From: Stramenopiles sp. TOSAG23-6
Lineage: Eukaryota
Direction: 5' to 3'
Length of the DNA: 34,634 nucleotides
NCBI GenBank assembly: GCA_900128565.1
Contig: LT635951.1
Span: forward strand, 1 to 34,634
In this document: one piece after another, positions 13,359 through 30,168 of the stretch
How positions within the stretch are numbered: the stretch's first letter is position 1
How the letters are laid out: each line of letters begins with the position of its first letter
Translations under genes and position numbers: made by a program
Notes under the pieces: generated by a model
Databases searched by the model: none
Told to the model about the DNA's origin: nothing
Seen by the model: only the letters and a program-made list of their open reading frames with translations

Positions 13359-13435
13359 TCATTGAAATTCAAAAAAAATTGTATTCAAACAATGATTTCG
13401 ATTCTAATCTCAAATCAAAAAAGATCTTTTACAGT

Positions 13436-15692
13436 ATGGAACGATGGAATGAAAAGTGGGACAATTTACAGACTAGTTCGGACGAAGACGAACGAAGTAG
13501 CGCAGATGTAAGCAAAAATTCATTTGATAGAAAAAAGAGAGATGTTGTTTCCAGAGATAGTGTAAAGTCGTACGAACCCAGATTGAATTCGTTTGACTTG
13601 ATGAGACAAGCTATTGTTGGTGACGCTCACTCGGAAGCGCAATTGCGCACGCTAGGAAACAAATCTTTTAAAGATGGTGCAACGGCTAAAGCCGAAGGCT
13701 ATTATTCACAGGCGATTGAAAAAGCTTTGAAAAGAAGGGAAAAAAAAGTGTCTGAAAAACCAAAAATTCCTTTAGTGATGCCGTCCAACCTGGAAAGCGT
13801 AAATCCAGAGACTAGAGCTGCACTGGAGTCACTCGAAGAAGAGTTAATTGAAATAGAAAAATCTAAACTAGACCCAAACGAAACAATTCAGAAATTGTAT
13901 AATAATAGATCTATCGTACGTTATAAATTAGGAAAATTTGCAAAGTCTGTTAGGGATGCTCGAGCTGCGTCAAATATTCAAAAAGACTGGGTAAAAGCAT
14001 ATTGGAGAGAGGCGTTGGCTAGCTCTGCACTTGAACGTTATGATGATGCCATCAAAGCTTATAAAAAAGCTCTTAAATATGATCCTGGTAGTATTCGTTT
14101 AAAGAAAGAGCTTGAGTCTACTATATTTAAAAAATTCCGTAAAAGTACAAAGAAAAGTAAACAAATTAGTAGACAAAATTTGAAAGTTTTACGTCATAAT
14201 TCAACAGAAAAAGTTATCAATAAAAAGAGTCATAATAAAAATACTGACGAAACAAATGATATTAATGAAATAACAGATAATACGAATAAAATTCGTAAGA
14301 AAGCTCGTGACGAAGCAGCTAACGTATTGCTCGAAGCAATTAACGAAAAAGCAAGTGAGGAGGAAGCAGATAAAAAAGCTGCTAAAGATCTCGAAATACG
14401 CCAATCTCTTCTTTTACAAAAGATAGCAAGAGAAAAGCAAGATTCAAGTAACATGAAAAATGATGCAAGCATATCCGGATTACGGAAAGGTTTTTTGAAT
14501 CGATTGGACTCTGCTCAAAATGGTCAAAATTGTGAAAAAGTAGATACCTATAAGAATAGTAAAAAAAAATTGTTAGGTACGAAATGTCCTACGAAAAAAA
14601 AAAGTGAAAACAAACCAGTAAAAATGTTACTGCACCCACAAATACCAGTATCGAAAAATACAATAGAATTATTAGATATTATATCTGCTTTGGCATGGGC
14701 ACCCAAGGGAGGTACAAATATTGCCGGTGCTGCCGCTGCTTTATGCCATCAAGTAGTCCGCAAGGAAAAAGTATGTTTTCATGATTTCAATTTTGAATTT
14801 ATTTATCTTCATTGAAAATTTCGTACCTAACAAAAAAAAATACAAAAAAAAAATATTTTTTACAATACAACGTGGAAAGCAGTTTTTTCTTTATTTAGCA
14901 TATGATCACGGTAATCAAGTTGTTAAACCTGAAGAGTATGATTTAACTGCAAAATCTCCACGTGCAAGCCAAGTCTTATTTTGTCGTGTTTTATCAATGT
15001 ATGATGGAAATGCTGTAAATACAGCAGCATTATTAGCTTTGCATTCATTGTTATATCATTCAGTAGAAAAAAATACGAAAAAAGTAAACATGCCGGTTCG
15101 ACTTCTGCATCGTGGTAAAGAAGTAGTTGACTATGGGCTTTGTTGTGGTTATCTGAAAGGTATTGAACAACTTGTTCTTGTTTCTTCTTGGGAGGGAATC
15201 CCTGAATCTAAATGGGAAATGGAGAAACAAAATCTTGAACAACACGAGTGGATTTATTTCCGTCTCAATTCAGGACAAATTTATTTTTTAGATTTTTCAG
15301 CTGAACAGTTTGGTGAAACTCCTCTTTTGATTCCCCATGCGAAGAATGTTGATGATTTTGTACATTGCATTTCATCCGCAAATAAATTTGCACCAGCAGG
15401 CGCACCTGCTAATATTTCAGTGCCTATTTTGTTTTGTAAAGCGGAAGCTGCAAAAGTTAGGTATGAAATTGAGAGAAATATTGATAAAACAGCCATAGCA
15501 ATGAGAGTAAGAATAGCTGAAAATGCGAGCGAAGATTCGCTACAAATTAAAGTAGAAAAAAATATGAATCTTGAGGAAGAAGTGAAACTTGCAAGGAAGA
15601 TGTCTGCAGTGCATATTATTAAGTTATTTTTACAGTCATTTAAGCCAAAATTGATTCAATCCTTTCCATATATTCATAAAAGCATTAATTAG
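13436..15692 (+). CDS. TPR-repeat protein with an uncharacterised C-terminal domain; join(13436-14770,14871-15692), about 718 aa
   Basis: Co-chaperone-type TPRs (LRTLGNKSFKDG...AEGYYSQAI; LYNNRSIVRYKLG; WVKAYWREALASSALERYDDAIKAYKKALKYDP) and N-terminal KWDNLQTSSDED. The two ORFs join in frame after removing element copy 3. Confidence 0.85.
14525..14630 (-). mobile_element. degenerate antisense copy of the intron element inside the TPR coding exon
   Basis: Reverse complement: GTAACATTTTT...TTTTTTCGTAGGACATTTCGTACCTAACAATTTTTTTTT...TTTTTCACAAT, which matches the family core. The plus-strand ORF reads through it. Ends are approximate. Confidence 0.75.
14771..14870 (+). other. non-canonical intron / introner-like element, copy 3 (100 nt, GT...AA)
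   Basis: aaa|GTATGT...GAAAATTTCGTACCTAAC...TACAATAC-AA|cgt. The frame change matches. In-frame AGs at 14879 and 14882 are possible alternative acceptors. Confidence 0.78.
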
Positions 15693-16347: not shown

Positions 16348-16937
16348 TATTCTAGCTCGGCATTTTGGTGAGTTTCTCAGTTGGTATATTAAGTCACTCA
16401 AAAGTTAGCTCTCGCGAAATTGTATTGACGGAAAGTGCGCGGAGAGAATGTTCTTAAAGCTATAATACTAATTCATATGAATGTGGATTCGCTGTGGATG
16501 GATTCTTTGTTTATGAGTGACTTAGAGTGAGTGATTTTCGATTTCGATTTTGATCAAGTCAAGATGAAGAGAGATCCGTTACGATGACTCGGCCAGCCCA
16601 GCGCCAGGTAGTGTCAAAAATTTAGGAACATCATCATGATTCATGAATCATGACTGTTGTTGTTGTTTTAAATATCAGTTAGTTCATAAAAAATATAGGT
16701 AGTATATCTAAACGCTGTCATAGAGAAACATATTTTAACTTCATTAAAACCAATTGTCATTTCATCAAAGACAAGTAATTTCTGCTTTAATTTGTGGATA
16801 CTTTTAGTTTTCTTTCTTCACACGAGATAGTATCAAACATCACTCATTCGTCGCTGACTTTTAACTTGGATAGTATATTTCACTAAGTGGTTGTTTTCCC
16901 ACATCAACTTGCCACAGGACTAAAAATATAATCTAGT

Positions 16938-18484
16938 ATGCAACTTGTTTATATAGTATGTGTATTTTATGCTACTGTCTCTACGATACAAACAGTTCAT
17001 GCGATGAGATGGGTTTTAAAAAAGTCATTAAAGTTAAAGTGTGAAAGAGTGGGAATCCAAGGTGACAACAATTTTCGAAGTTGTTCAGCTTGTGCTAAAA
17101 ATTATGGATGCGGTTGGTGTGAAGTGGGTACAATATTTAATGGCAATCCTCTTGGTTCAAGTAAAATTTTTCCTAATAAGCATCAGTGTATTTCTCTAAA
17201 AGATGAATGTATCGGAACTCTATTTCACCGGGGACTCTGTCATGAACCACGAAAAATAAGACGTGAAAAGTGGTTGGAAGTAAGTGAAACCAACCGTCGA
17301 ATCAACGGAGATGAAAAGTATCGCAACTACTTGGATGTATGGGAAATTGAAAAGATAAGTGAAGCACAAATATCACGAGATACATCACGTTCAGGTGTTA
17401 AAGGTAACCAAATAATCAATTTAGGAAATGTTTTGAAAGCATATGCTGTATATGATAAAGAAGTCAAATATCAACAAGGAATGTATGCTTTCATCATTTT
17501 TAAAATTTAAAATTTTAATTTGTTTTTCATCGAAAATTTCATACCTAATTAATTTCAAACTTTAAGACATATGTTTTCACAATATATGTATGTTTTATTT
17601 TTTTTCAATTTCGATTGTTTTTTCGTACGAAATTTTGTACCTAACAATTTTTTTTTTGAAATATTTTTCACAATATATGAATCTAATAGCAGGAATGTTT
17701 TTGAAACTGAATATGAATGAAGAAGAAGCATTTTGGATGCTTGTGTCTGTGATGCAAAATGATAAGTATTATCTTAAAAATTTGTTTCTCAATGACCCTA
17801 AAAAAATGACACACAGATTGTATATTTTTATCATCAATTCCGAATTTATTTTTTTTCGAACTCAAAAGGTTTCGCATCTAACATTTGTTTTCTAAAAATA
17901 TTTTTCCACAATATTTAAATGATATAAATAAAATGTTAAATTTTGTCAGGAGAGAATTTTTACATAATTTTATTGATCCTGTACATCATGAAACGTTGGA
18001 AAAAAATCATGACGAGTTAATGTACGTTTTCACCATTAATTTCAAATTTATTTGTTTTACTAAGAAAATTTCGTACCTAACGATGTTTTTACTAAAAAAC
18101 AAAAATATTTTTTCACAAAACATGATGTTGGAACAGTCTAGATGTATCCAATGGATGGAAAGTGTATTTATTGTATCTTTTAGAACATATTTATTACATC
18201 ATATATGGGATTTTCTACTCACTGATGATGAGAATACTATGGAGCATAACTTATTGCTAGTTATTGGATCCTTCTATCATCTCGCCCTGAAGCATTCCTT
18301 TGAAAAATTTCATAATATAACACCTGACCAAGTTGAACAGGTAATGTCCACTTGGATACCTAATCAAGTTACTTTGGAACAACTGAATGAAGCTTTGTAT
18401 GAAAGAAAATCAACGTATATACAAGTTACAGAAACTAATATTATTGCAGAAGCTGAAACAAAGTCTGACATTGAGAGATATTGA
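16938..18484 (+). CDS. TBC-domain Rab GTPase-activating protein with an N-terminal signal-like peptide and Cys-rich PSI-like module; join(16938-17482,17679-17819,17917-18021,18124-18484), about 383 aa
   Basis: ISRDTSR (IxxDxxR), NVLKAYAVYDKEVKYQQG|MNLIAGMFL, EEEAFWML, QWMESVF, HIWDFLL; CSACAKNYGCGWC. Exon lengths sum to a multiple of three after removing four elements. Confidence 0.88.
17483..17587 (+). other. non-canonical intron / introner-like element, copy 4 (105 nt, GT...AT)
   Basis: ggaat|GTATGC...GAAAATTTCATACCTAAT...CACAATAT-AT|, followed immediately by copy 5. Confidence 0.85.
17588..17678 (+). other. non-canonical intron / introner-like element, copy 5 (91 nt, GT...AT)
   Basis: at|GTATGT...CGTACGAAATTTTGTACCTAAC...CACAATAT-AT|gaat. 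Removing copies 4 and 5 rebuilds the ATG of YQQGMN. Confidence 0.88.
17820..17916 (+). other. non-canonical intron / introner-like element, copy 6 (97 nt, GT...TT)
   Basis: agatt|GTATAT...GGTTTCGCATCTAAC...CCACAATAT-TT|aaat gives HRLNDINKML in frame. An in-frame AG at 17949 would delete 11 residues of a TBC helix. Confidence 0.8.
18022..18123 (+). other. non-canonical intron / introner-like element, copy 7 (102 nt, GT...AT)
   Basis: ttaat|GTACGT...GAAAATTTCGTACCTAAC...CACAAAAC-AT|gatg. Length is 3n with no in-frame stop. Confidence 0.8.
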
Positions 18485-18782
18485 ACTTTTAAGCAACATA
18501 ATCAATAATTTATATGAGCTGCTCCTTTGGTATATGTTCCGTTGGAGTTTTAATAATACTTACAAAAATTAAATTGCTATATGCCATCGCCAGATAGATT
18601 CACTAACTGTTCACAGTCATAGCGAAACTTTTGAGTTCTAACGCTTAAATAAGTTCAAAATTTACATGAAAATAAAATATGTCGATATCCAGATATTTTT
18701 TTATCTTCTCTTTATTAGATACATCAAGCGATACCATGATGGATCCTTTACTCTACATTTTTTTCGTTCAATAAAATACCTC

Positions 18783-19262
18783 TTAATAACCGTCTCCACT
18801 TGAATAGCCACCGCCTCCACCATAATAGCCACCGCCCCCACTTGAACCACCATAATAGCCACCGCCTCCACTTGAACCACCGTAATAGCCACCGCCTCCA
18901 TTTGAACCACCGTAATAGCCACCGCCTCCACTAGAACCACTGTAATAGCCACCGCCTCCACTTGAACCACCATAATAGCCACCGCCTCCACTTGAATCTC
19001 CGTTGTAGCCACCATTTCCACTTGAACTATGACCCTTGCTCCCACTTGATCCATTGTTTCCAATAGAACCTCCGGAGCCTTTACTTTTCCCGCAGTTTGA
19101 TGATGAATTCCAATGAGGAACCTTACCGGCGTTCATATTTCTCGCCGCAGCACTTTGAGCTCGAGCAGCAAAAGATCCTTTCTCAATTCTACCGTTTCGA
19201 GCATATTCGTTTGACATTACGCGACGTGCAGCTTCTCCGTCAAATAGATGTGGTTTAGGCAT
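18783..19262 (-). CDS. SMP (seed-maturation/LEA-like) motif protein with a Gly/Tyr/Ser-rich tail
   Basis: AARRVMSNEYARNGRIEKGSFAARAQSAAARN resembles the SMP repeat. ATG at 19262; the C-terminus is built of GGYYGGSSGG repeats. Confidence 0.8.
   Translation of the reverse strand: MPKPHLFDGEAARRVMSNEYARNGRIEKGSFAARAQSAAARNMNAGKVPHWNSSSNCGKSKGSGGSIGNNGSSGSKGHSSSGNGGYNGDSSGGGGYYGGSSGGGGYYSGSSGGGGYYGGSNGGGGYYGGSSGGGGYYGGSSGGGGYYGGGGGYSSGDGY
18817..19027 (-). repeat. coding tandem repeat, about 7 x 30 nt (GGYYGGSSGG)
   Basis: The unit CCACCATAATAGCCACCGCCTCCACTTGAA recurs every 30 nt with few substitutions. Confidence 0.95.
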
Positions 19263-19568
19263 AATGGCAAATATTACAGGCACAGTTCTAGTAATTGCTA
19301 TTGTATAGCTTTATATGATGGGTCTAATAAGAGGGCACCCCACGATACCACGGTCCACAGGCACCAATCAAATTACTATTAGTGGTTTTATTAAACTTTT
19401 ATAATATTATTAAAATATTATGACAGTATCCGCTGCGCGCTGAATATATTTATTTATGGGGAACCGTTTTTCGTGTTATTCCAGTTATATAATTCAAGAG
19501 TATGATGATGAGAATAATTCTTGAAGTGGTCATTACTAAAATACAATTACAAATATTTGTATCAATAT

Positions 19569-21592
19569 TTAATTTTTAATAACATCATTCATGTTTCCTT
19601 TTACTAACGATTGAAAATCATCTACTCGTTTATTACTACCTATTAAAATTCGATTTGTCTCGGTATTTGATACATTTATATTCGTATCGTATGGCGAGAG
19701 TGAAATACTCTGAGGCCAAGAAGTAGACAGCATATATTTAACAATTTCAAATTGTATAGATTCTTGGGATTCTCCCCGAAAGGAGGCATTTGACAAATTT
19801 GAAATTACATCTGCACCAAATATCGTCCGTAACAAATCTCTATCTGAATTATATAATTTTTCCAAACTAATGTCAGAGAATGTAACATCTATACCAATAT
19901 TTACTGCAATCATACCCCATGGTTGAATTGTACTACGAGCAATTTCAAATATATTTTTATGTTTACATGGAAATTTTACATCATTTGTACCTAAAAAATA
20001 AATTGGCCACGAATCTTGGCTAAATACATCTATTAATACGGCATCAAATTTTTCTTGGGTACCATTCGCTATTCTTTTTGATGCTTTTCTTAGATATGAT
20101 AATCCATCATCATGTAATACATCTAACCCTTTTCCTTTGACTTCAAAGCAATGCTGTGCAGCCTCAATGACGGCCAGATTATGTATTTTGGAAAAATATT
20201 TCAAAATTTTTTTGTTAGGTACAGAATTTCGTACGAAAAAAAAAATCGAAATTAAAAGAAAATAAAACATTCATGCTCTACACAAGTAATATGTGCATTT
20301 GGATAATGACGTTGCAAAAATAAAGCAATTTGTCCACCTCCGATACCAAGTAATAAGAAACGCGGCGATTCACATTCATTTGATTCAAAATGAAAAGGTA
20401 AAAGAGATACCATCGTTTTCTGATACCAATTTTCTAATTTCGATCCTTTTGGATTTCGTGTATCCCATTCACTTTCACAAAAGTTGCCTTCAATGGGTGA
20501 TAAGTCAGGATTTATAGAACGGATTTTATTTGATGGTTGCTTTTGTTCTTTACGTTGAAGAGTTTCACCCCAATTCCAAACACCAAACTGAAGAACTCGA
20601 TAGTAATCACATTGTAAAACAATAACTGCTTCATTTTCTTTTGGTAATTTGTAGGTACAGTTTCCTGTATTTATTTTACCACTTGAGTAGCTAAATTGTC
20701 TATTTTTTCCAATATTAAAATATAGTATAGAAAAACCAGGAGATTTGAAATTCACTACATTTGAAAGTTGTCGCAAGGTTTCAAATTCTGCTGTGTCATA
20801 ATACCAACTTGGAATACAAATATTTTCTATACCATTTTCTATACCATTTTGTATACCATTTTCTATTCCATTTTGTATACTATTTTGTATACCATTTTCT
20901 ATACCATTTTCTATACAACCAACTTTAGTAGATTCAAATTGATCAGTTGTTGTAGATTCCACAGGAATACTCCCATATTTACCGAGTACTCGTAATGTCT
21001 CAAGTACATGATATTTTTCATACATAAAGATATCCTCTTTACTTCGCTCGTTTTGAATTAATAGTAATAAAGCTAAAACCGTATTACTTCCAACTACCTC
21101 AACCCCGGCTACAACGCCGCAAGAAAACACCAAATGATATATAGCAATAGCAGCATAAATACGAATGCAACAAGCTTCGATCATCGATATCTCAACTATA
21201 TTGGGTTGTAATTGACCGAAAGAATCAATACCAGTAGATAGAAGTACAGCCAGATGTCGCGCTGCACCAAGTTGCAAAGTTCTCTGTCCAACACTTCGAT
21301 ATGTCGCATCAACTGTAACAGTTTGAGGCACAAGTCTAAAATCGTGCTTGTGAGAAAGAACACCATTGAATGCAAAACACAAATTTCGCAAAGCTGTTAT
21401 TAAAAGCGTGGGATCACAAATCGAAAGTTGAGTGCACGCATAAGAAGCTGTACTCACACGAAACTGTGTGGTCTCGGTAATTTTCTTCCATGACTTACAC
21501 ACGCAACGTAACACTCGTGCAAGTTCCTCAGGACAAATCATACCAGGAAGCATGGTGAGAATCACTAGTGGGGTAGTTCTTTCCTTTGCCAT
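19569..21592 (-). CDS. F-box-like N-terminus fused to a class I SAM-dependent (spermidine-synthase/METTL13-like) methyltransferase domain; join(21592-20273,20180-19569), about 643 aa
   Basis: RFLLLGIGGGQIALFLQRHYPNAHITCVEH|NLAVIEAAQHCF...VLHDDGLSYL...KFDAVLIDVF...GMIAVN; N-terminal PEELARVLRCVCKSWKKI. Confidence 0.85.
20181..20272 (-). other. non-canonical intron / introner-like element, copy 8 (92 nt, GA...AT)
   Basis: Minus strand: gagcat|GAATGT...CGTACGAAATTCTGTACCTAAC...TCCAAAATAC-AT|aatctg. The frame change matches and the orientation follows the host gene. Confidence 0.85.
20822..20916 (-). repeat. coding tandem repeat, about 8 x 12 nt (IENG/IQNG)
   Basis: ATTTTCTATACC / ATTTTGTATACC units on the plus strand. 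Confidence 0.92.
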
Positions 21593-22001: not shown

Positions 22002-23116
22002 ATGCCAAACTTTGAACTTGATGATGCAGATATGTTTGCTCGTTGGTTACTTGAACAAGGCATGCATTTAACAGCCCTTGAATTGCATCAGGAGTTACTA
22101 CTTAACCACCAAGCAAGTATACCTGTGCTCGAGTCGTTCATGCGCGGAGATGTTTTGGGTGATCATTTAAGCAAAGAGGTAAGAGCTGCATCAATAGATA
22201 GTATGATATTATCCACAAATACGAGTCCCTTTGAGCACGGCGGTATAATGGATATAATCCAGACTCGCGATGATAAAATAGCGTTGTTGGAATATGAATT
22301 GAGGTGTTCGCGGGAAGACCTCTCAGCCATGCGAGGTCGTGTTCGCGCGTTTTCTGAAGCAGCTTTAGATGGCACAGAATCATATATTAATAATAGAAAG
22401 GATAATACGGTACAACAATCCACAAATTACAAAAATCCATTTAGCAAAAGTCAAATTTCTAATAAAGTTTCTTCAGACTCGAAAAATCCTTTTTCTTCAC
22501 ACAACTCAAGTCAGTCTTCTGGTCAACATAGTGCTGATAATAAAGACATGACAAGACAAGAACGTAATATTCTTAATTGTATTGTTAAAAGGTACCTCGA
22601 GAACTCAGGCTATAAATTATCGTGTCTCACTTTTAGTGAAGAAGTAAATGATCAAGATTTAGATGATTTAGAGTCTTTAGGACTTTCAAGTGGAAATCGA
22701 GCTGATCTTGTGTCTTTATATAGAGGCAGAATAGACCCAATAAGAGATGCTTTATCTCTTCAAGTAGATCTCAACAGAGAAAGAAGATTATCCGCAAAAT
22801 TAAAAGCGTCATCGACTGCAGCCATCAACGAAGCAGAAGAATCTCGAGAATTTCATGCTAAACTTAGTAAAAAATTCCAAGTTATATTAGACGAAACCTC
22901 TCAGCACAAAGAAAAAATAGCGGAAATGACTAAACAGAATGAAAATTTGAAGGAAATGATCTCTTCATTACGGGATGAGTTAGATTTGGCACGTGTATGT
23001 TTTATAATGAATTTCTAATTTAATTGTTTTTTCATACGAAATTTCGTACCTAACGATTTTTTTTGAAATATTTTTTCACAATACATGTCTTCCTCTTGAA
23101 ATTTATAAAGACTTGA
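22002..23116 (+). CDS. RELCH: RELCH/KIAA1468-like protein, LisH/coiled-coil N-terminal part only; 3' structure uncertain
   Basis: ARWLLEQGMHLTALELHQELL, DDKIALLEYELR and ERNILNCIVKRYLENSGYKLSCLTFSEEVNDQDLD match the RELCH N-terminus. Removing copy 9 by the family rule gives a stop after 9 codons; no HEAT-repeat region follows. Confidence 0.7.
22995..23086 (+). other. non-canonical intron / introner-like element, copy 9 (92 nt, flanks GT/AT mismatched)
   Basis: cgt|GTATGT...CATACGAAATTTCGTACCTAAC...CACAATAC-AT|gtc. The only copy whose flanking dinucleotides differ. Confidence 0.85.
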
Positions 23117-23451
23117 CCTTGCCCTCAACTTGGTTAAAATGGTATCAGTTATGCACGAAATCTGAAAAGGTGACTATATTGGATATGATATGGCGTGAGT
23201 GTACTGCCGAAGAGCACAATTTCATCATTGTTGATCTCCAGGCATTTTTTAGTGTAACAGGGTCTACAAAAAAATCAGTTGTTCAAAGGAAAAACATGAA
23301 ATTGAAAAATCCAAAAGTTCTTTCAAAAAAAGAAGTTATCGTGCCATGCAGCAACCCTAACCCTAATCCAAAAGTTCTTTCAAAAAAAGAAGTTATCGTG
23401 CCATGCAGCAACCCTAAGGAGAAATCTAATAAAATTAACTCAAATAGATGA
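23086..23451 (+). CDS. orphan open frame, probably the 3' exon of a gene
   Basis: The frame is open from the element end (CLPLEIYKDLTLPSTWLKWYQ...) for about 120 codons with no nearby ATG. It is out of phase with RELCH under the family rule. Confidence 0.45.
   Translation, partial: CLPLEIYKDLTLPSTWLKWYQLCTKSEKVTILDMIWRECTAEEHNFIIVDLQAFFSVTGSTKKSVVQRKNMKLKNPKVLSKKEVIVPCSNPNPNPKVLSKKEVIVPCSNPKEKSNKINSNR
23308..23417 (+). repeat. 53-nt direct duplication (period 57)
   Basis: AATCCAAAAGTTCTTTCAAAAAAAGAAGTTATCGTGCCATGCAGCAACCCTAA at 23308 and 23365. Confidence 0.92.
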
Positions 23452-28413: not shown

Positions 28414-30168
28414 ATGTCTTCTGAAGTTCAAACTCCAATCTGCTCGAATACTTCTTGTCTCCACCAGTTGGTACTTCGAGATAACAATTCAAAAGTTGAA
28501 CCAAAGATCATTCATCTTCATAGTAGTGGGAAAAGTTCATTTAAAGTAAGTTATTGTTTTCATACAAATAATCATTTTTCTCCTTCATTCTTGTTTATCT
28601 TAAACTTTTTTTTATCTTCATTTGTTGTTACTTCGATTACACTTCGTTTCTGTACCTATTTTTTCAGATAATTTGTGTAACTTAACGAAGCAAGTAATTT
28701 TAAAAAAATTCATTCAATACAGCTTGGAAGGAGTCGGTCTTCAGCTGATGTTGTCTTTAGTTCTAAAGGAGGTCCCCTAATGATTTCTAGAGTTCACGCA
28801 ATACTTTCTCGGTCTAAAGCATCTGAAAAGATTTCCGAGAATAATACTTTAATTGGCAATAGTATCAACAGTTTAAATAGTAAATCATCACTGGAAGTTT
28901 CTAAGAGTACTGTATGGTGGAAGATTGAAGATAATAATAGTAGAAATGGTATGTTTGTCAACTCTATTAAGTTAGCTGAGGCGACTCTGTCTCATGGAGA
29001 CATAGTGACTTTTGGTGGGGGAGGCACTCTCCCTTACGGTACCCATAAAAACAACATTGAATCTGATTATCAGTATGTATTTTTAAAAGTTTGCTCTAAT
29101 CAAGATGAAGATAATATATCAACAAACGAATATAAGGAAAAGAATAGCAAGAAAAATATGTTTCAAAGAAATTCTTTCCCGACAACGGGCTCTTCAAGTC
29201 GTCGGAAGCGGCCACTTACTGAAAAGATTGATCTTTCCTCGAAGCGTCCTAGACTTGATACATCATGCATTGTTTCAAATACGATGAATATACATAAAAA
29301 ACATGAAATACCAATAACGAAGGAAGGTGATAACGCGATAGCTACAGGGATTTGCGGGGATGGAGTCTCACTAAATTCACAGAAAAATGTTGATTTATCA
29401 ACTAAAAGCACTGCATTAGTTCCTTTTTCTTCTGTGCTTCCCCAAGGTACTGTCAAAGTTAATTGTTTGCAAGAAGAATTGACGTGCCCGATATGTTTGG
29501 ATTATTTACTTCAAGCTCACACCCTAGGATGTGGTCATTCACTATGTATGCTTTCAAAATTGAATTTCAAATTTTTCAAATTTATTTATTTTCGTACCAA
29601 ATTTTGTACCTAACATTATTTTTTGGAAATATTTTTCCACAATATATGTGCTCCGTGTATTGTAAAAACGCTTGAAAACAAACGAGCTTGTCCTTGTTGT
29701 CGTGCACCAACAACCAAGCCACCTATACGTTCACGTGTTCTAGATAATGCAATTAACAAATTATTGAAACAAGAAGGATGCGAGTCAAAATATTCTGAGT
29801 ACCTACACCGATTAAAAAAATGGGAAAAAGATATCAGTTTGAGAAAAGCCCAAGCAAAACAATTGAAAAGAGTTATATGTAACGCAAAGCGAGAAGGAAA
29901 GCATTTCCTCTGTATCACTGATAAATGGACAAGTAATGAACAACAAGTTTTTCAAAAAGGTGTTGCTCTTTATCATGGTGTTGCTCGAGTTGTATACTGC
30001 AACACCACAAGTTTGACAGCAGAGTATATAGAAAGTGCTTCAAAAGAAGAATTAAAGCTCGCTAGTTTAAATGTCGGTGTGGTAAATAAGAAATCAGTAT
30101 CAACCTTAGATGCATCAACAATGCGATCATTGTTACACATGTTCAGATTATATGGTGGCCGTGAATAA
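28414..30168 (+). CDS. FHA + C3HC4 RING E3 ubiquitin ligase (RNF8/CHFR-like); join(28414-28545,28723-29545,29648-30168), about 491 aa
   Basis: FHA FK|LGRS...PLMISRVHA...IEDNNSRNGMFVN...LSHGDIVTFG; RING CPICLDYLLQAHTLGCGHSL|CAPC...CPCCR is complete only after removing copy 10. Confidence 0.92.
28546..28722 (+). other. canonical GT-AG spliceosomal intron (177 nt)
   Basis: aaa|GTAAGT...TAACTTAAC...TTCAATACAG|ctt. The in-frame join restores the FHA LGR motif. Confidence 0.85.
29546..29647 (+). other. non-canonical intron / introner-like element, copy 10 (102 nt, GT...AT)
   Basis: ctat|GTATGC...CGTACCAAATTTTGTACCTAAC...CCACAATAT-AT|gtgct. It has an in-frame stop, and the first downstream AG (29686) would delete two RING cysteines. 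Confidence 0.9.

Follow-up and report, generated by a model that had tools for sequence, protein, structure and literature searches.

Introners are the best-supported source of new introns, and the families described from Micromonas pusilla, Aureococcus anophagefferens and dinoflagellates have much in common: many near-identical short introns occur at unrelated positions in marine organisms, mostly in the sense orientation, and these elements, as far as the accounts go, carry one splice site and obtain the other end from a short duplicated target (PMC11282704; bioRxiv 10.1101/2020.10.14.339549). In M. pusilla, the element IE1 brings its own 5' site, whereas the AG at its 3' end derives from a duplication of 3 nt (PMC11282704), and the dinoflagellate elements recruit splice sites from duplications of 3-8 nt (bioRxiv 10.1101/2020.10.14.339549). 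Few lineages tolerate non-AG ends, and it is in these (Fritillaria, Amoebophrya) that studies are probing how far spliceosome specificity can be relaxed; in Fritillaria borealis, divergent U2AF paralogs are described as reading the odd 3' ends (PMC13326754; PMC11282704). The current study concerns a contig of an uncultured marine protist, Stramenopiles sp. TOSAG23-6 (LT635951.1 of assembly GCA_900128565.1, forward strand), analyzed over its whole length of 34,634 nt (hereafter the window). The window contains a repeat family that shares with these introners the sense bias and the scatter of short, similar copies over unrelated positions, and probably also the borrowing of one end from a duplicated target; two of its copies abut within a single Met codon of a gene encoding a TBC/RabGAP protein, with no exon between them. 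We consider it probable that these two copies are independent insertions of a high-copy intron-generating mobile element, i.e. an introner, and that both are spliced at the RNA level with a 3' site that is independent of AG.

The arrangement can be read directly from the DNA: CAA GGA AT is followed by GTATGC...CACAATAT AT, then by GTATGT...CACAATAT AT and finally by G AAT CTA. Exon 1 of the TBC gene (16938-17482, + strand, like all other features of this gene) ends with the AT of the Met codon, whereas exon 2 (17679-17819) begins with its G and continues as NLIAGMF. Between the exons lie copy 4 (17483-17587, 105 nt) and copy 5 (17588-17678, 91 nt). Copy 4 contains a 5' GTATGC (17483-17488), the branch-like sequence TACCTAAT (17542-17549), a 3' box CACAATAT (17578-17585) and a terminal AT (17586-17587), while copy 5 contains a 5' GTATGT (17588-17593), the palindrome GTACGAAATTTTGTAC (17625-17640), the branch-like sequence TACCTAAC (17638-17645), the same 3' box CACAATAT (17669-17676) and a terminal AT (17677-17678). 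The 3' end of the first thus meets the 5' splice site of the second without a gap at 17587/17588 (...CACAATATAT, then GTATGT), which is the layout of a zero-length exon, and the AT dinucleotide is found three times, at 17481-17482, 17586-17587 and 17677-17678. A profile built from eight other copies of the window and a copy from a metagenome contig, with both members of the pair left out, matches each of them over model positions 1-92 (copy 4, E 7.9e-5; copy 5, E 7.9e-11), and hence both are complete members of the family. Copy 4 has the weakest profile score of the family, and its branch box is degenerate (CTAAT). The initial annotation had proposed two full but diverged copies placed end to end, each with its own branch-like motif and 3' end, together with the threefold AT; the direct reading and the left-out profile bear this out.

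The same annotation had placed the pair inside the Met codon of the motif YQQGMN, and here too two separate observations agree. The match of exon 1 to Pfam PF00566 (RabGAP-TBC) covers profile positions 23-92 and ends at the G of YQQG, whereas the match of exon 2 (17680-17817) covers positions 94-133 and starts at N; since a single profile position is missing between 92 and 94, exactly one residue, the Met, is split. Excising 196 nt yields ...YQQGMNLIAGMF, whereas excising 194, 195, 197 or 198 nt leads to early stops, and removal of all four elements of the gene produces an open frame of 383 aa that ends in a stop. The protein encoded by exon 1 begins with a hydrophobic segment and also contains a PSI-like region rich in Cys (a weak Pfam PSI match, E 0.003), ISRDTSR and YQQG. 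ISRDTSR fits the arginine-finger motif IxxDxxR, so that both catalytic fingers of a TBC domain are present. The hydrophobic segment and PSI-like part are unusual companions of a RabGAP domain. A search for exon 1 relatives among proteins of near length found none at E <= 1e-5, and a comparison with representative proteins gave three matches, all to Cys-rich repeats, and no orthologue.

Sequencing data provide evidence for the removal of the pair. Fifteen runs matched the window, including two small runs that may be its source, three seawater DNA runs of another study (word shares 0.77, 0.53 and 0.34) and three RNA runs with small shares; contigs of X6, X8 and X14 (RNA) and X3 (DNA) were compared, those over 16900-18500 being aligned at >= 90% likeness. 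Contigs of this kind reveal neither transcript ends nor strand, and rare forms are lost in them. In the oligo-dT RNA-seq run X8, a contig of 151 nt (record 26, depth 2) aligns with positions 3-35 on 17448-17480 and with positions 36-151 on 17677-17792; 17480 is joined to 17677 with no letters between, exactly 196 nt are skipped, and the whole alignment has one difference. The skipped segment, as aligned, is 17481-17676 on the + strand, and owing to the repeated ATG, the cut could equally be placed as much as 3 nt further to the right. X8 depth is 0 over the unique interior of copy 4 (17494-17547) and over the next element of the gene, compared with 1-2 on exons 1 and 2. In X3, depth over the same interior of copy 4 is 6.7 vs 6.4 on the neighboring exon contig, and a contig of 513 nt without differences (record 15, 17650-18162) carries the tail of copy 5, exon 2, the third element, exon 3 and the fourth element contiguously. 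A T>C difference at 17396 is common to X3 and X8. Since poly(A) RNA lacks both elements whereas the DNA of an independent population retains them, removal most likely occurs at the RNA level.

The two copies belong to a sizable family. A profile from nine + strand copies detects 11 copies in seven genes of the window with nhmmer (E <= 4.6e-7, the next match having E 0.23), and a twelfth lies on a metagenome contig (L002). Ten of the 11 window copies are in the sense orientation relative to the host gene (P 0.006); together with the L002 copy, these form the 11 sense copies to which the counts below refer. Besides the pair, the TBC gene holds c6 (17820-17916, +; E 4.6e-13), which has TT flanks, ends ...CACAATAT TT and keeps the frame (189 aa) only if 97 nt are removed, and c7 (18022-18123, +; E 3.3e-17), which has AT flanks and the 3' box CACAAAAC followed by AT, and whose frame is open only with 102 nt removed (120 aa to the stop). 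The gene for an ELAC2-type tRNase Z holds c1 (2994-3087, +) and c2 (3182-3286, +), both with AT flanks. Removing 94 nt at c1 keeps the frame, and removing 105 nt at c2, eight codons upstream of FLGTGSA, opens a 456-aa continuation, with no gap at the junction in the alignment to the closest ELAC2 (P0014). In a TPR gene, c3 (14771-14870, +) has AA flanks, ends ...TACAATAC AA and gives a 273-aa continuation after removal of 100 nt. A further copy, c9 (29546-29647, +; AT flanks), splits the RING finger of an FHA-RING gene; excision of its 102 nt gives a 173-aa continuation and restores the RING spacing CGHSLCAPC (C-x-H-x2-C-x2-C). In a - strand gene, c10 (20181-20272, -; AT flanks) gives a 203-aa continuation upon removal of 92 nt. 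The last sense copy of the window is c8 (22995-23086, +). Overall, only the removal of the element plus two nucleotides keeps the host frame in nine of the ten sense window copies, the evidence for precise removal being an RNA contig for copies 4 and 5 and the reading frame only for seven further copies. At the L002 copy, the frame does not discriminate among removal lengths.

The single antisense copy (14526-14629, -; E 4.6e-7) lies within a + strand open reading frame (ORF) of the TPR gene (13379-14815). Because it contains no stop in that frame, the ORF continues through it, adding about 34 aa rich in Lys, and the insertion seems to have persisted as part of the coding sequence. The sense bias, the likeness of the signals to those of ordinary introns, and an antisense copy of the kind that could persist if removal works in a single orientation, all favor RNA splicing over excision from DNA.

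In the window, the branch box TTYSKWMSTAAC occurs seven times vs 0.38 expected (0 of 100 shuffles reach seven), and a composite pattern occurs five times vs 0 expected, whereas by itself the 10-mer TTCACAATAT shows no significant excess (found 14 times vs 6.9 expected; 2 of 100 shuffles reach 14). Among metagenome contigs, the composite pattern is found at two loci, L001 and L002. By inspection, L001 looks like a chance match on an unrelated contig with an ordinary intron and no GTATG 5' part, a judgment made without applying the profile, and we do not count it as a family copy. The composite pattern and a 19-mer of the core had no matches in the genome contigs or in the viral contigs searched. 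An intron at about 409-535 of L002 (GTACGT...TACCTAAT...TTCACAG) falls outside the family. At 2270-2340 of L002, in intergenic DNA near the family copy, there are also short telomere-like motifs in inverted arrangement (CCCTAA / TTAGGG). In the sequencing runs, 3949 X3 contigs and 640 X6 contigs fall on the stretch, almost all of them on the element core, and the summed X3 depth on 17602-17655 is 199,707 vs about 5-6 on exons, although these sums may include related organisms. As for dispersed copies, consensus agreement of the loose ends drops to 0.39-0.6 past the element ends, and the 3' loose ends read ...CACAATACATG and then diverge.

The anatomy of the element resembles that of an intron up to its final bases. 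Family members start with a 5' site of the form GTAYG, contain a branch-like CTAAC box, and finish with the 3' box CACAAWAY and two further bases. Among the sense copies, the 5' end is GTATG in seven, GTACG in two, GTATA in one and GAATG in one. The last of these is c10, which thus has a GA 5' end, yet its 203-aa frame is restored. The interior consists of a T-rich stretch, a short palindrome (GTACGAAATTTCGTAC in the best-kept copies) running into TACCTAAC, an A/T spacer and ATATTTTTT, after which comes the 3' box. CTAAC is present in 9/11 copies (CTTAC and CTAAT in the other two), and the 3' box is CACAATAY in 8/11, with the variants TACAATAC, CACAAAAC and CAAAATAC. The distance from branch box to 3' end is 32-42 nt in the seven copies listed for it, and 36 nt in an ordinary GT-AG intron of the window (28546-28722, +; GTAAGT...ACTTAAC...36 nt...CAATACAG). 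The latter is not matched by nhmmer and is therefore not a family member; its status as an intron is supported by the following exon (from 28723), whose match to the FHA profile starts at position 3. It resides in the same FHA-RING gene as c9, so that both kinds of intron coexist in one transcript. Compared with its end, ...CAATACAG, the family end ...CACAATAYAT deviates essentially in the last base. The ordinary spliceosome requires an AG 3' end. AG does occur inside the 3' parts of c2 and copy 4, and the first AG past copy 5 is 13 nt into exon 2, but splicing to any of these would break the frame and abolish the conserved NLIAG segment. Predicted RNA folds of 10 copies have z values from +1.17 to -2.59 and no shared structure beyond a short central hairpin; the ends are paired in copy 5 only. 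The copies that have diverged least still have an intact central palindrome, whereas it has decayed in older copies, which suggests a role in mobility rather than in splicing.

The relationship among the copies offers some insight into the history of the pair. Copies 4 and 5 are 71% identical, a value inside the 64-84% seen across the family. The closest relatives of copy 5 are c8 (84%) and c10 (82%), whereas the best identity of copy 4 to any copy is 72%. Given that 71% is simply the family background and that copy 5 is closer to copies in other genes, the comparison points to two separate insertions and not a local duplication. By the same reasoning, copy 4 is presumably the older resident, being no closer than 72% to any copy, and copy 5, at up to 84%, the later arrival. 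This agrees with the earlier suggestion that a second element had inserted at the AT left by the first. The proposed mobility with an AT preference also gains support. In 10/11 sense copies, the bases before GT repeat the bases after the 3' box (AT in eight, AA in c3, TT in c6); the chance of AT preceding GT in at least 8 of the 11 is about 8e-7 at f(AT)=0.095, and the joint chance of the two non-AT flank matches is about 0.013. The pattern is as would be given by a 2-bp target-site duplication with an AT preference, although 12 copies are too few to separate this firmly from preference alone. The AA and TT copies favor duplication over an insertion preference, whereas c8 does not fit. With a 2-bp duplication, the three ATs of the site follow directly, the middle AT being shared by the two elements. 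Furthermore, an insertion that duplicates AT leaves AT on both sides, and a second insertion at the same place would therefore be expected. If 11 insertions are distributed over 3286 equally likely AT sites in the window, the probability of some coincidence is about 0.017, and a narrower target raises it. At about one copy per 3 kb, the whole genome should hold some pairs by chance, which makes the tandem a natural by-product of the family.

Based upon these features, a mechanism can be proposed. The element carries a GTAYG 5' site, the branch box TACCTAAC, which overlaps a short palindrome, as well as a T-rich tract and the CACAAWAY box, and would insert preferentially into AT, leaving this dinucleotide on both sides. 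The intron removed would consist of the element plus one copy of the flank (GT...CACAAWAY-NN), its last two bases being donated by the target, usually AT and never AG. This register seems preferable, because GTATG is a standard U2-type 5' site, whereas the alternative NNGT...AY would turn 5/11 copies into AT-AC introns. In the TBC gene, copy 4 would have entered the AT of the Met codon first, and copy 5 later the AT on the 3' side of copy 4. Both would then be spliced by intron definition, each as its own intron of about 100 nt and in either order, since removal of either copy would leave a normal single-element context, with AT then GTATG... on the left and ...CACAATATAT then G on the right. 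No exon would be needed between them, and every removal route would lead to the same mRNA.

Whether the pair leaves in two events or in one is less certain than its removal. In one alternative, it would be excised as one 196-nt intron: copy 4 would provide the 5' site, copy 5 would provide both the branch box and the 3' end, and the inner 3' end and 5' site would be passed over, with no recursion involved. The sole RNA form seen lacks both copies together, although contigs cannot show intermediates, whose absence among them is thus uninformative. The degenerate branch box and weak profile score of copy 4 could also favor the better signals of copy 5. Conversely, family introns measure 91-105 nt, about half of 196 nt, and the joint retains a perfect GTATGT in copy 5 as well as a full 3' box in copy 4. 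As such a length is twice that of the family and the inner signals are intact, we lean toward two events, and regard a single excision as possible but the less probable route.

A second alternative concerns how the family spreads, which under our favored explanation would be by DNA transposition. The elements could instead propagate by reverse splicing of excised intron RNA into transcripts, with subsequent reverse transcription and recombination, in which case the flanking AT would reflect a preferred insertion site and belong to the intron, and would not be a duplication. All 11 window copies are inside genes and 10 are sense, the terminal inverted repeats are minimal, the element comprises little beyond splice signals, and c8 ends ...CACAATACAT with no matching AT before it, as if AT were part of the element. 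However, the intragenic location is uninformative in a window that consists almost entirely of genes, one copy is antisense within a coding exon, and c3 and c6 both end with and are preceded by AA and TT, respectively (joint chance about 0.013). We therefore view this route as rather unlikely.

Less likely still is a shift of both cuts by 2 nt leftward (AT GTATG...CACAATAC), which would produce AT-AC or AT-AT introns handled by a U12-type or an AT-AC-tolerant spliceosome. In this register, 5/11 sense copies (c1, c7, c8, c10 and the L002 copy) read AT...AC, the length and strong conservation of the 5' motif and branch box recall U12-type introns, and U12-type 3' ends are flexible. U12-type introns have the 5' motif RTATCCTT and a branch site TCCTTAAC located about 10-26 nt from the 3' end. 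The family motif is GTATGYTTT, which does not match, its GTATG fits a U2-type cut before the G, and its branch box TACCTAAC is 32-42 nt from the 3' end; moreover, c3 and c6 would begin with AA and TT. In motif and branch distance, the family does not fit the U12-type class.

It is very improbable that the tandem is an assembly artefact created by merging two single-copy haplotypes. The runs from which the assembly probably derives comprise just 16-18 million letters, and among the rows shown, there is no independent contig across 17587/17588. Nevertheless, X3 covers the interior of copy 4 at full rather than half the exon depth, the tail of copy 5 is contiguous with exon 2 in X3, and assemblers present alleles of 71% identity as alternatives, not head-to-tail with an intact shared AT. 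Even a merge would still need two independent insertions at the same AT. Finally, germline-limited DNA resembling the internal eliminated sequences of ciliates, for which the joined form would exist as DNA, is the least credible explanation of all: the elements are indeed short and AT-rich with a 2-nt direct repeat of which one copy stays, like ciliate pointers, but DNA excision should be independent of orientation whereas 10 of the 11 window copies are sense, the splice-like signals are those of the ordinary introns of this genome, X3 DNA holds the elements at exon depth while the joined form comes from a poly(A) RNA library, and the standard genetic code gives ORFs of up to 2171 aa.

Several observations weigh against the explanation we favor, namely independent insertions of an introner that is spliced without AG. 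The RNA support is one contig of depth 2 with a left arm of 33 nt, and a strain lacking both elements could yield the same joint. Among the joints shown (75 are unlisted, and contigs cannot show such forms), there is no one-copy joint, branch point or lariat, and among the X3 pieces shown (5191 are unlisted), none bridges 17587/17588. AG is the terminus of 0/11 sense copies, at odds with the needs of an ordinary spliceosome. The terminal inverted repeats do not exceed 4-6 nt (ATGTAT...ATACAT); no autonomous element turned up and no transposase is known, though no genome-wide look was made. Twelve copies cannot firmly distinguish a target-site duplication from a preference for inserting after AT, and c8 is an exception to the family rule: it is preceded by GT rather than AT, is followed by AT, and requires removal of 91 or 94 nt, not 92, for its downstream frame of 120 aa. 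The upstream GT of c8 might be used (GTGTATG), its AT might be carried by the element, or the assembly might be in error.

The larger point than the tandem itself is that very abundant introns with canonical 5' and branch signals appear to be removed without a terminal AG. As a tentative proposal, about which we are somewhat doubtful ourselves, the 3' site of thousands of introns would be chosen by position, i.e. two bases past CACAAUAY and about 35-40 nt downstream of the branch, whatever those bases are (AT, AA or TT), as they would be nothing but the target that the mobile element has duplicated. If this is true, any insertion would be spliceable at once, and because the target is rebuilt, elements could stack head-to-tail with zero-length exons, even in a catalytic codon. 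It would also constitute a third, independent and much more regular case of AG-independent splicing, with a canonical 5' site and branch box, and one suited to learning how a U2-type spliceosome does without the terminal G. Since the family alters the 3' terminus only and ordinary GT-AG introns are present in the same genes, the question of 3' site choice is cleanly isolated. The tandem serves as a natural test of whether the elements act as autonomous intron units that need no exon between them, and it would be direct evidence that insertion re-creates a usable target. That two insertions are tolerated in a catalytic codon implies very efficient and accurate removal.

The surroundings of these elements are those of a compact eukaryotic genome, with about 35% GC and long, closely packed ORFs. 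Besides the TBC/RabGAP gene, the window encodes the ELAC2-type tRNase Z (50% identical to a EukProt entry), a 2171-aa IQ/WW/B-box/EF-hand protein, TPR and SET proteins, a CCZ1-like protein, PA-domain and FHA-RING proteins, TRAPPC4 (67% and 64% identical to metagenome proteins and 40% to Phaeothamnion) and an EGF-repeat protein. The 5' 565 nt of an 18S rRNA gene (1-564, -; Rfam RF01960, 534 bits) are cut by the window edge about 1 kb from the tRNase Z gene. A few unrelated repeats were also encountered. Seven 30-nt tandem units lie at 18787-19056 (-) inside the overlapping ORFs 18701-19063 and 18783-19283; by eye they look Gly/Tyr/Ser-rich, and ORF 18783-19283 has no Pfam match. A 12-nt sequence, which reads ATTTTCTATACC on the + strand, is repeated in tandem about eight times at 20810-20938 within the - strand ORF 20252-21592, and an exact 53-nt direct repeat with a spacing of 57 nt (23308-23417, +) duplicates a peptide of about 19 aa in the ORF downstream of c8.

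When the pair is compared with other arrangements in which a 3' end abuts a 5' site and no exon is needed between them, the closest parallels are the recursive splice sites of Drosophila (ratchet points) and the stwintrons of fungi. Ratchet points subdivide one long intron and read YAG then GTRAGT, and a stwintron consists of an outer intron whose donor, branch or acceptor element is disrupted by a second, inner intron. Copies 4 and 5 are unlike either, being two complete autonomous mobile introns side by side. A stwintron in particular can be set aside, as the family profile matches each copy over its full length and all signals of either copy are left uninterrupted by the other. Neither "tandem" nor "nested" appears in the main text of the introner papers checked, among them PMC12130899, PMC11282704 and bioRxiv 10.1101/2020.10.14.339549, though their supplements could hold cases. 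A literature search for introners with zero-length exons or recursive splicing returned stwintron and recursive-splicing papers and no report of tandem introners. In the available portion of a single-cell genome paper on uncultured stramenopiles, introns are mentioned only in the methods. Large surveys are described as inspecting families with unfamiliar splice sites by hand and discarding those without transcript support (PMC12130899), and a family of this kind in an unannotated genome could consequently be missed.

Among described mobile introns, the window family is a set of sequence-similar introns at unrelated positions that are precisely removed, and because they do not have canonical GT/GC...AG ends, they fit a non-canonical subclass of introners. 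The introners of M. pusilla, A. anophagefferens and dinoflagellates, as far as they are described, end in AG, supplied by either the target duplication or the element, whereas 0/11 copies do so here; the flanking repeat is 2 nt rather than the 3 nt of M. pusilla or the 4-8 nt of dinoflagellates, and the minimal terminal inverted repeats and the central palindrome overlapping the branch box are further distinctions. The introners of Amoebophrya A25 and A120 are similar in having non-GT-AG ends and direct repeats over the borders that render the exact cut ambiguous (PMC7789003). Unlike the window family, which has a canonical 5' site and branch box but weak folds, they exhibit inverted repeats of 8-20 nt that pair the ends and direct repeats of 3-5 nt, with no clear terminal signature in the account consulted (PMC7789003). 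Nor does the family match the end-pairing non-conventional introns of euglenids and Amoebophrya, since these have a stable end helix and only copy 5 of the 10 folded copies pairs its ends. Fritillaria borealis provides another parallel, with transposon-derived introns that have AG-AC or AG-AT ends and are removed by a U2-type spliceosome (PMC13326754; PMC11282704). However, the 5' end is also non-canonical in that species, and fewer than 10% of its introns are described as GT-AG (PMC13326754; PMC11282704), whereas the present family, from a protist with a compact genome, retains the 5' GT and the branch box and deviates in only the last base or two. The window family thus differs from the known cases in three respects: its 3' end lacks AG although the 5' site and branch box are canonical, its flanking repeat is 2 nt long, and terminal inverted repeats are nearly absent.

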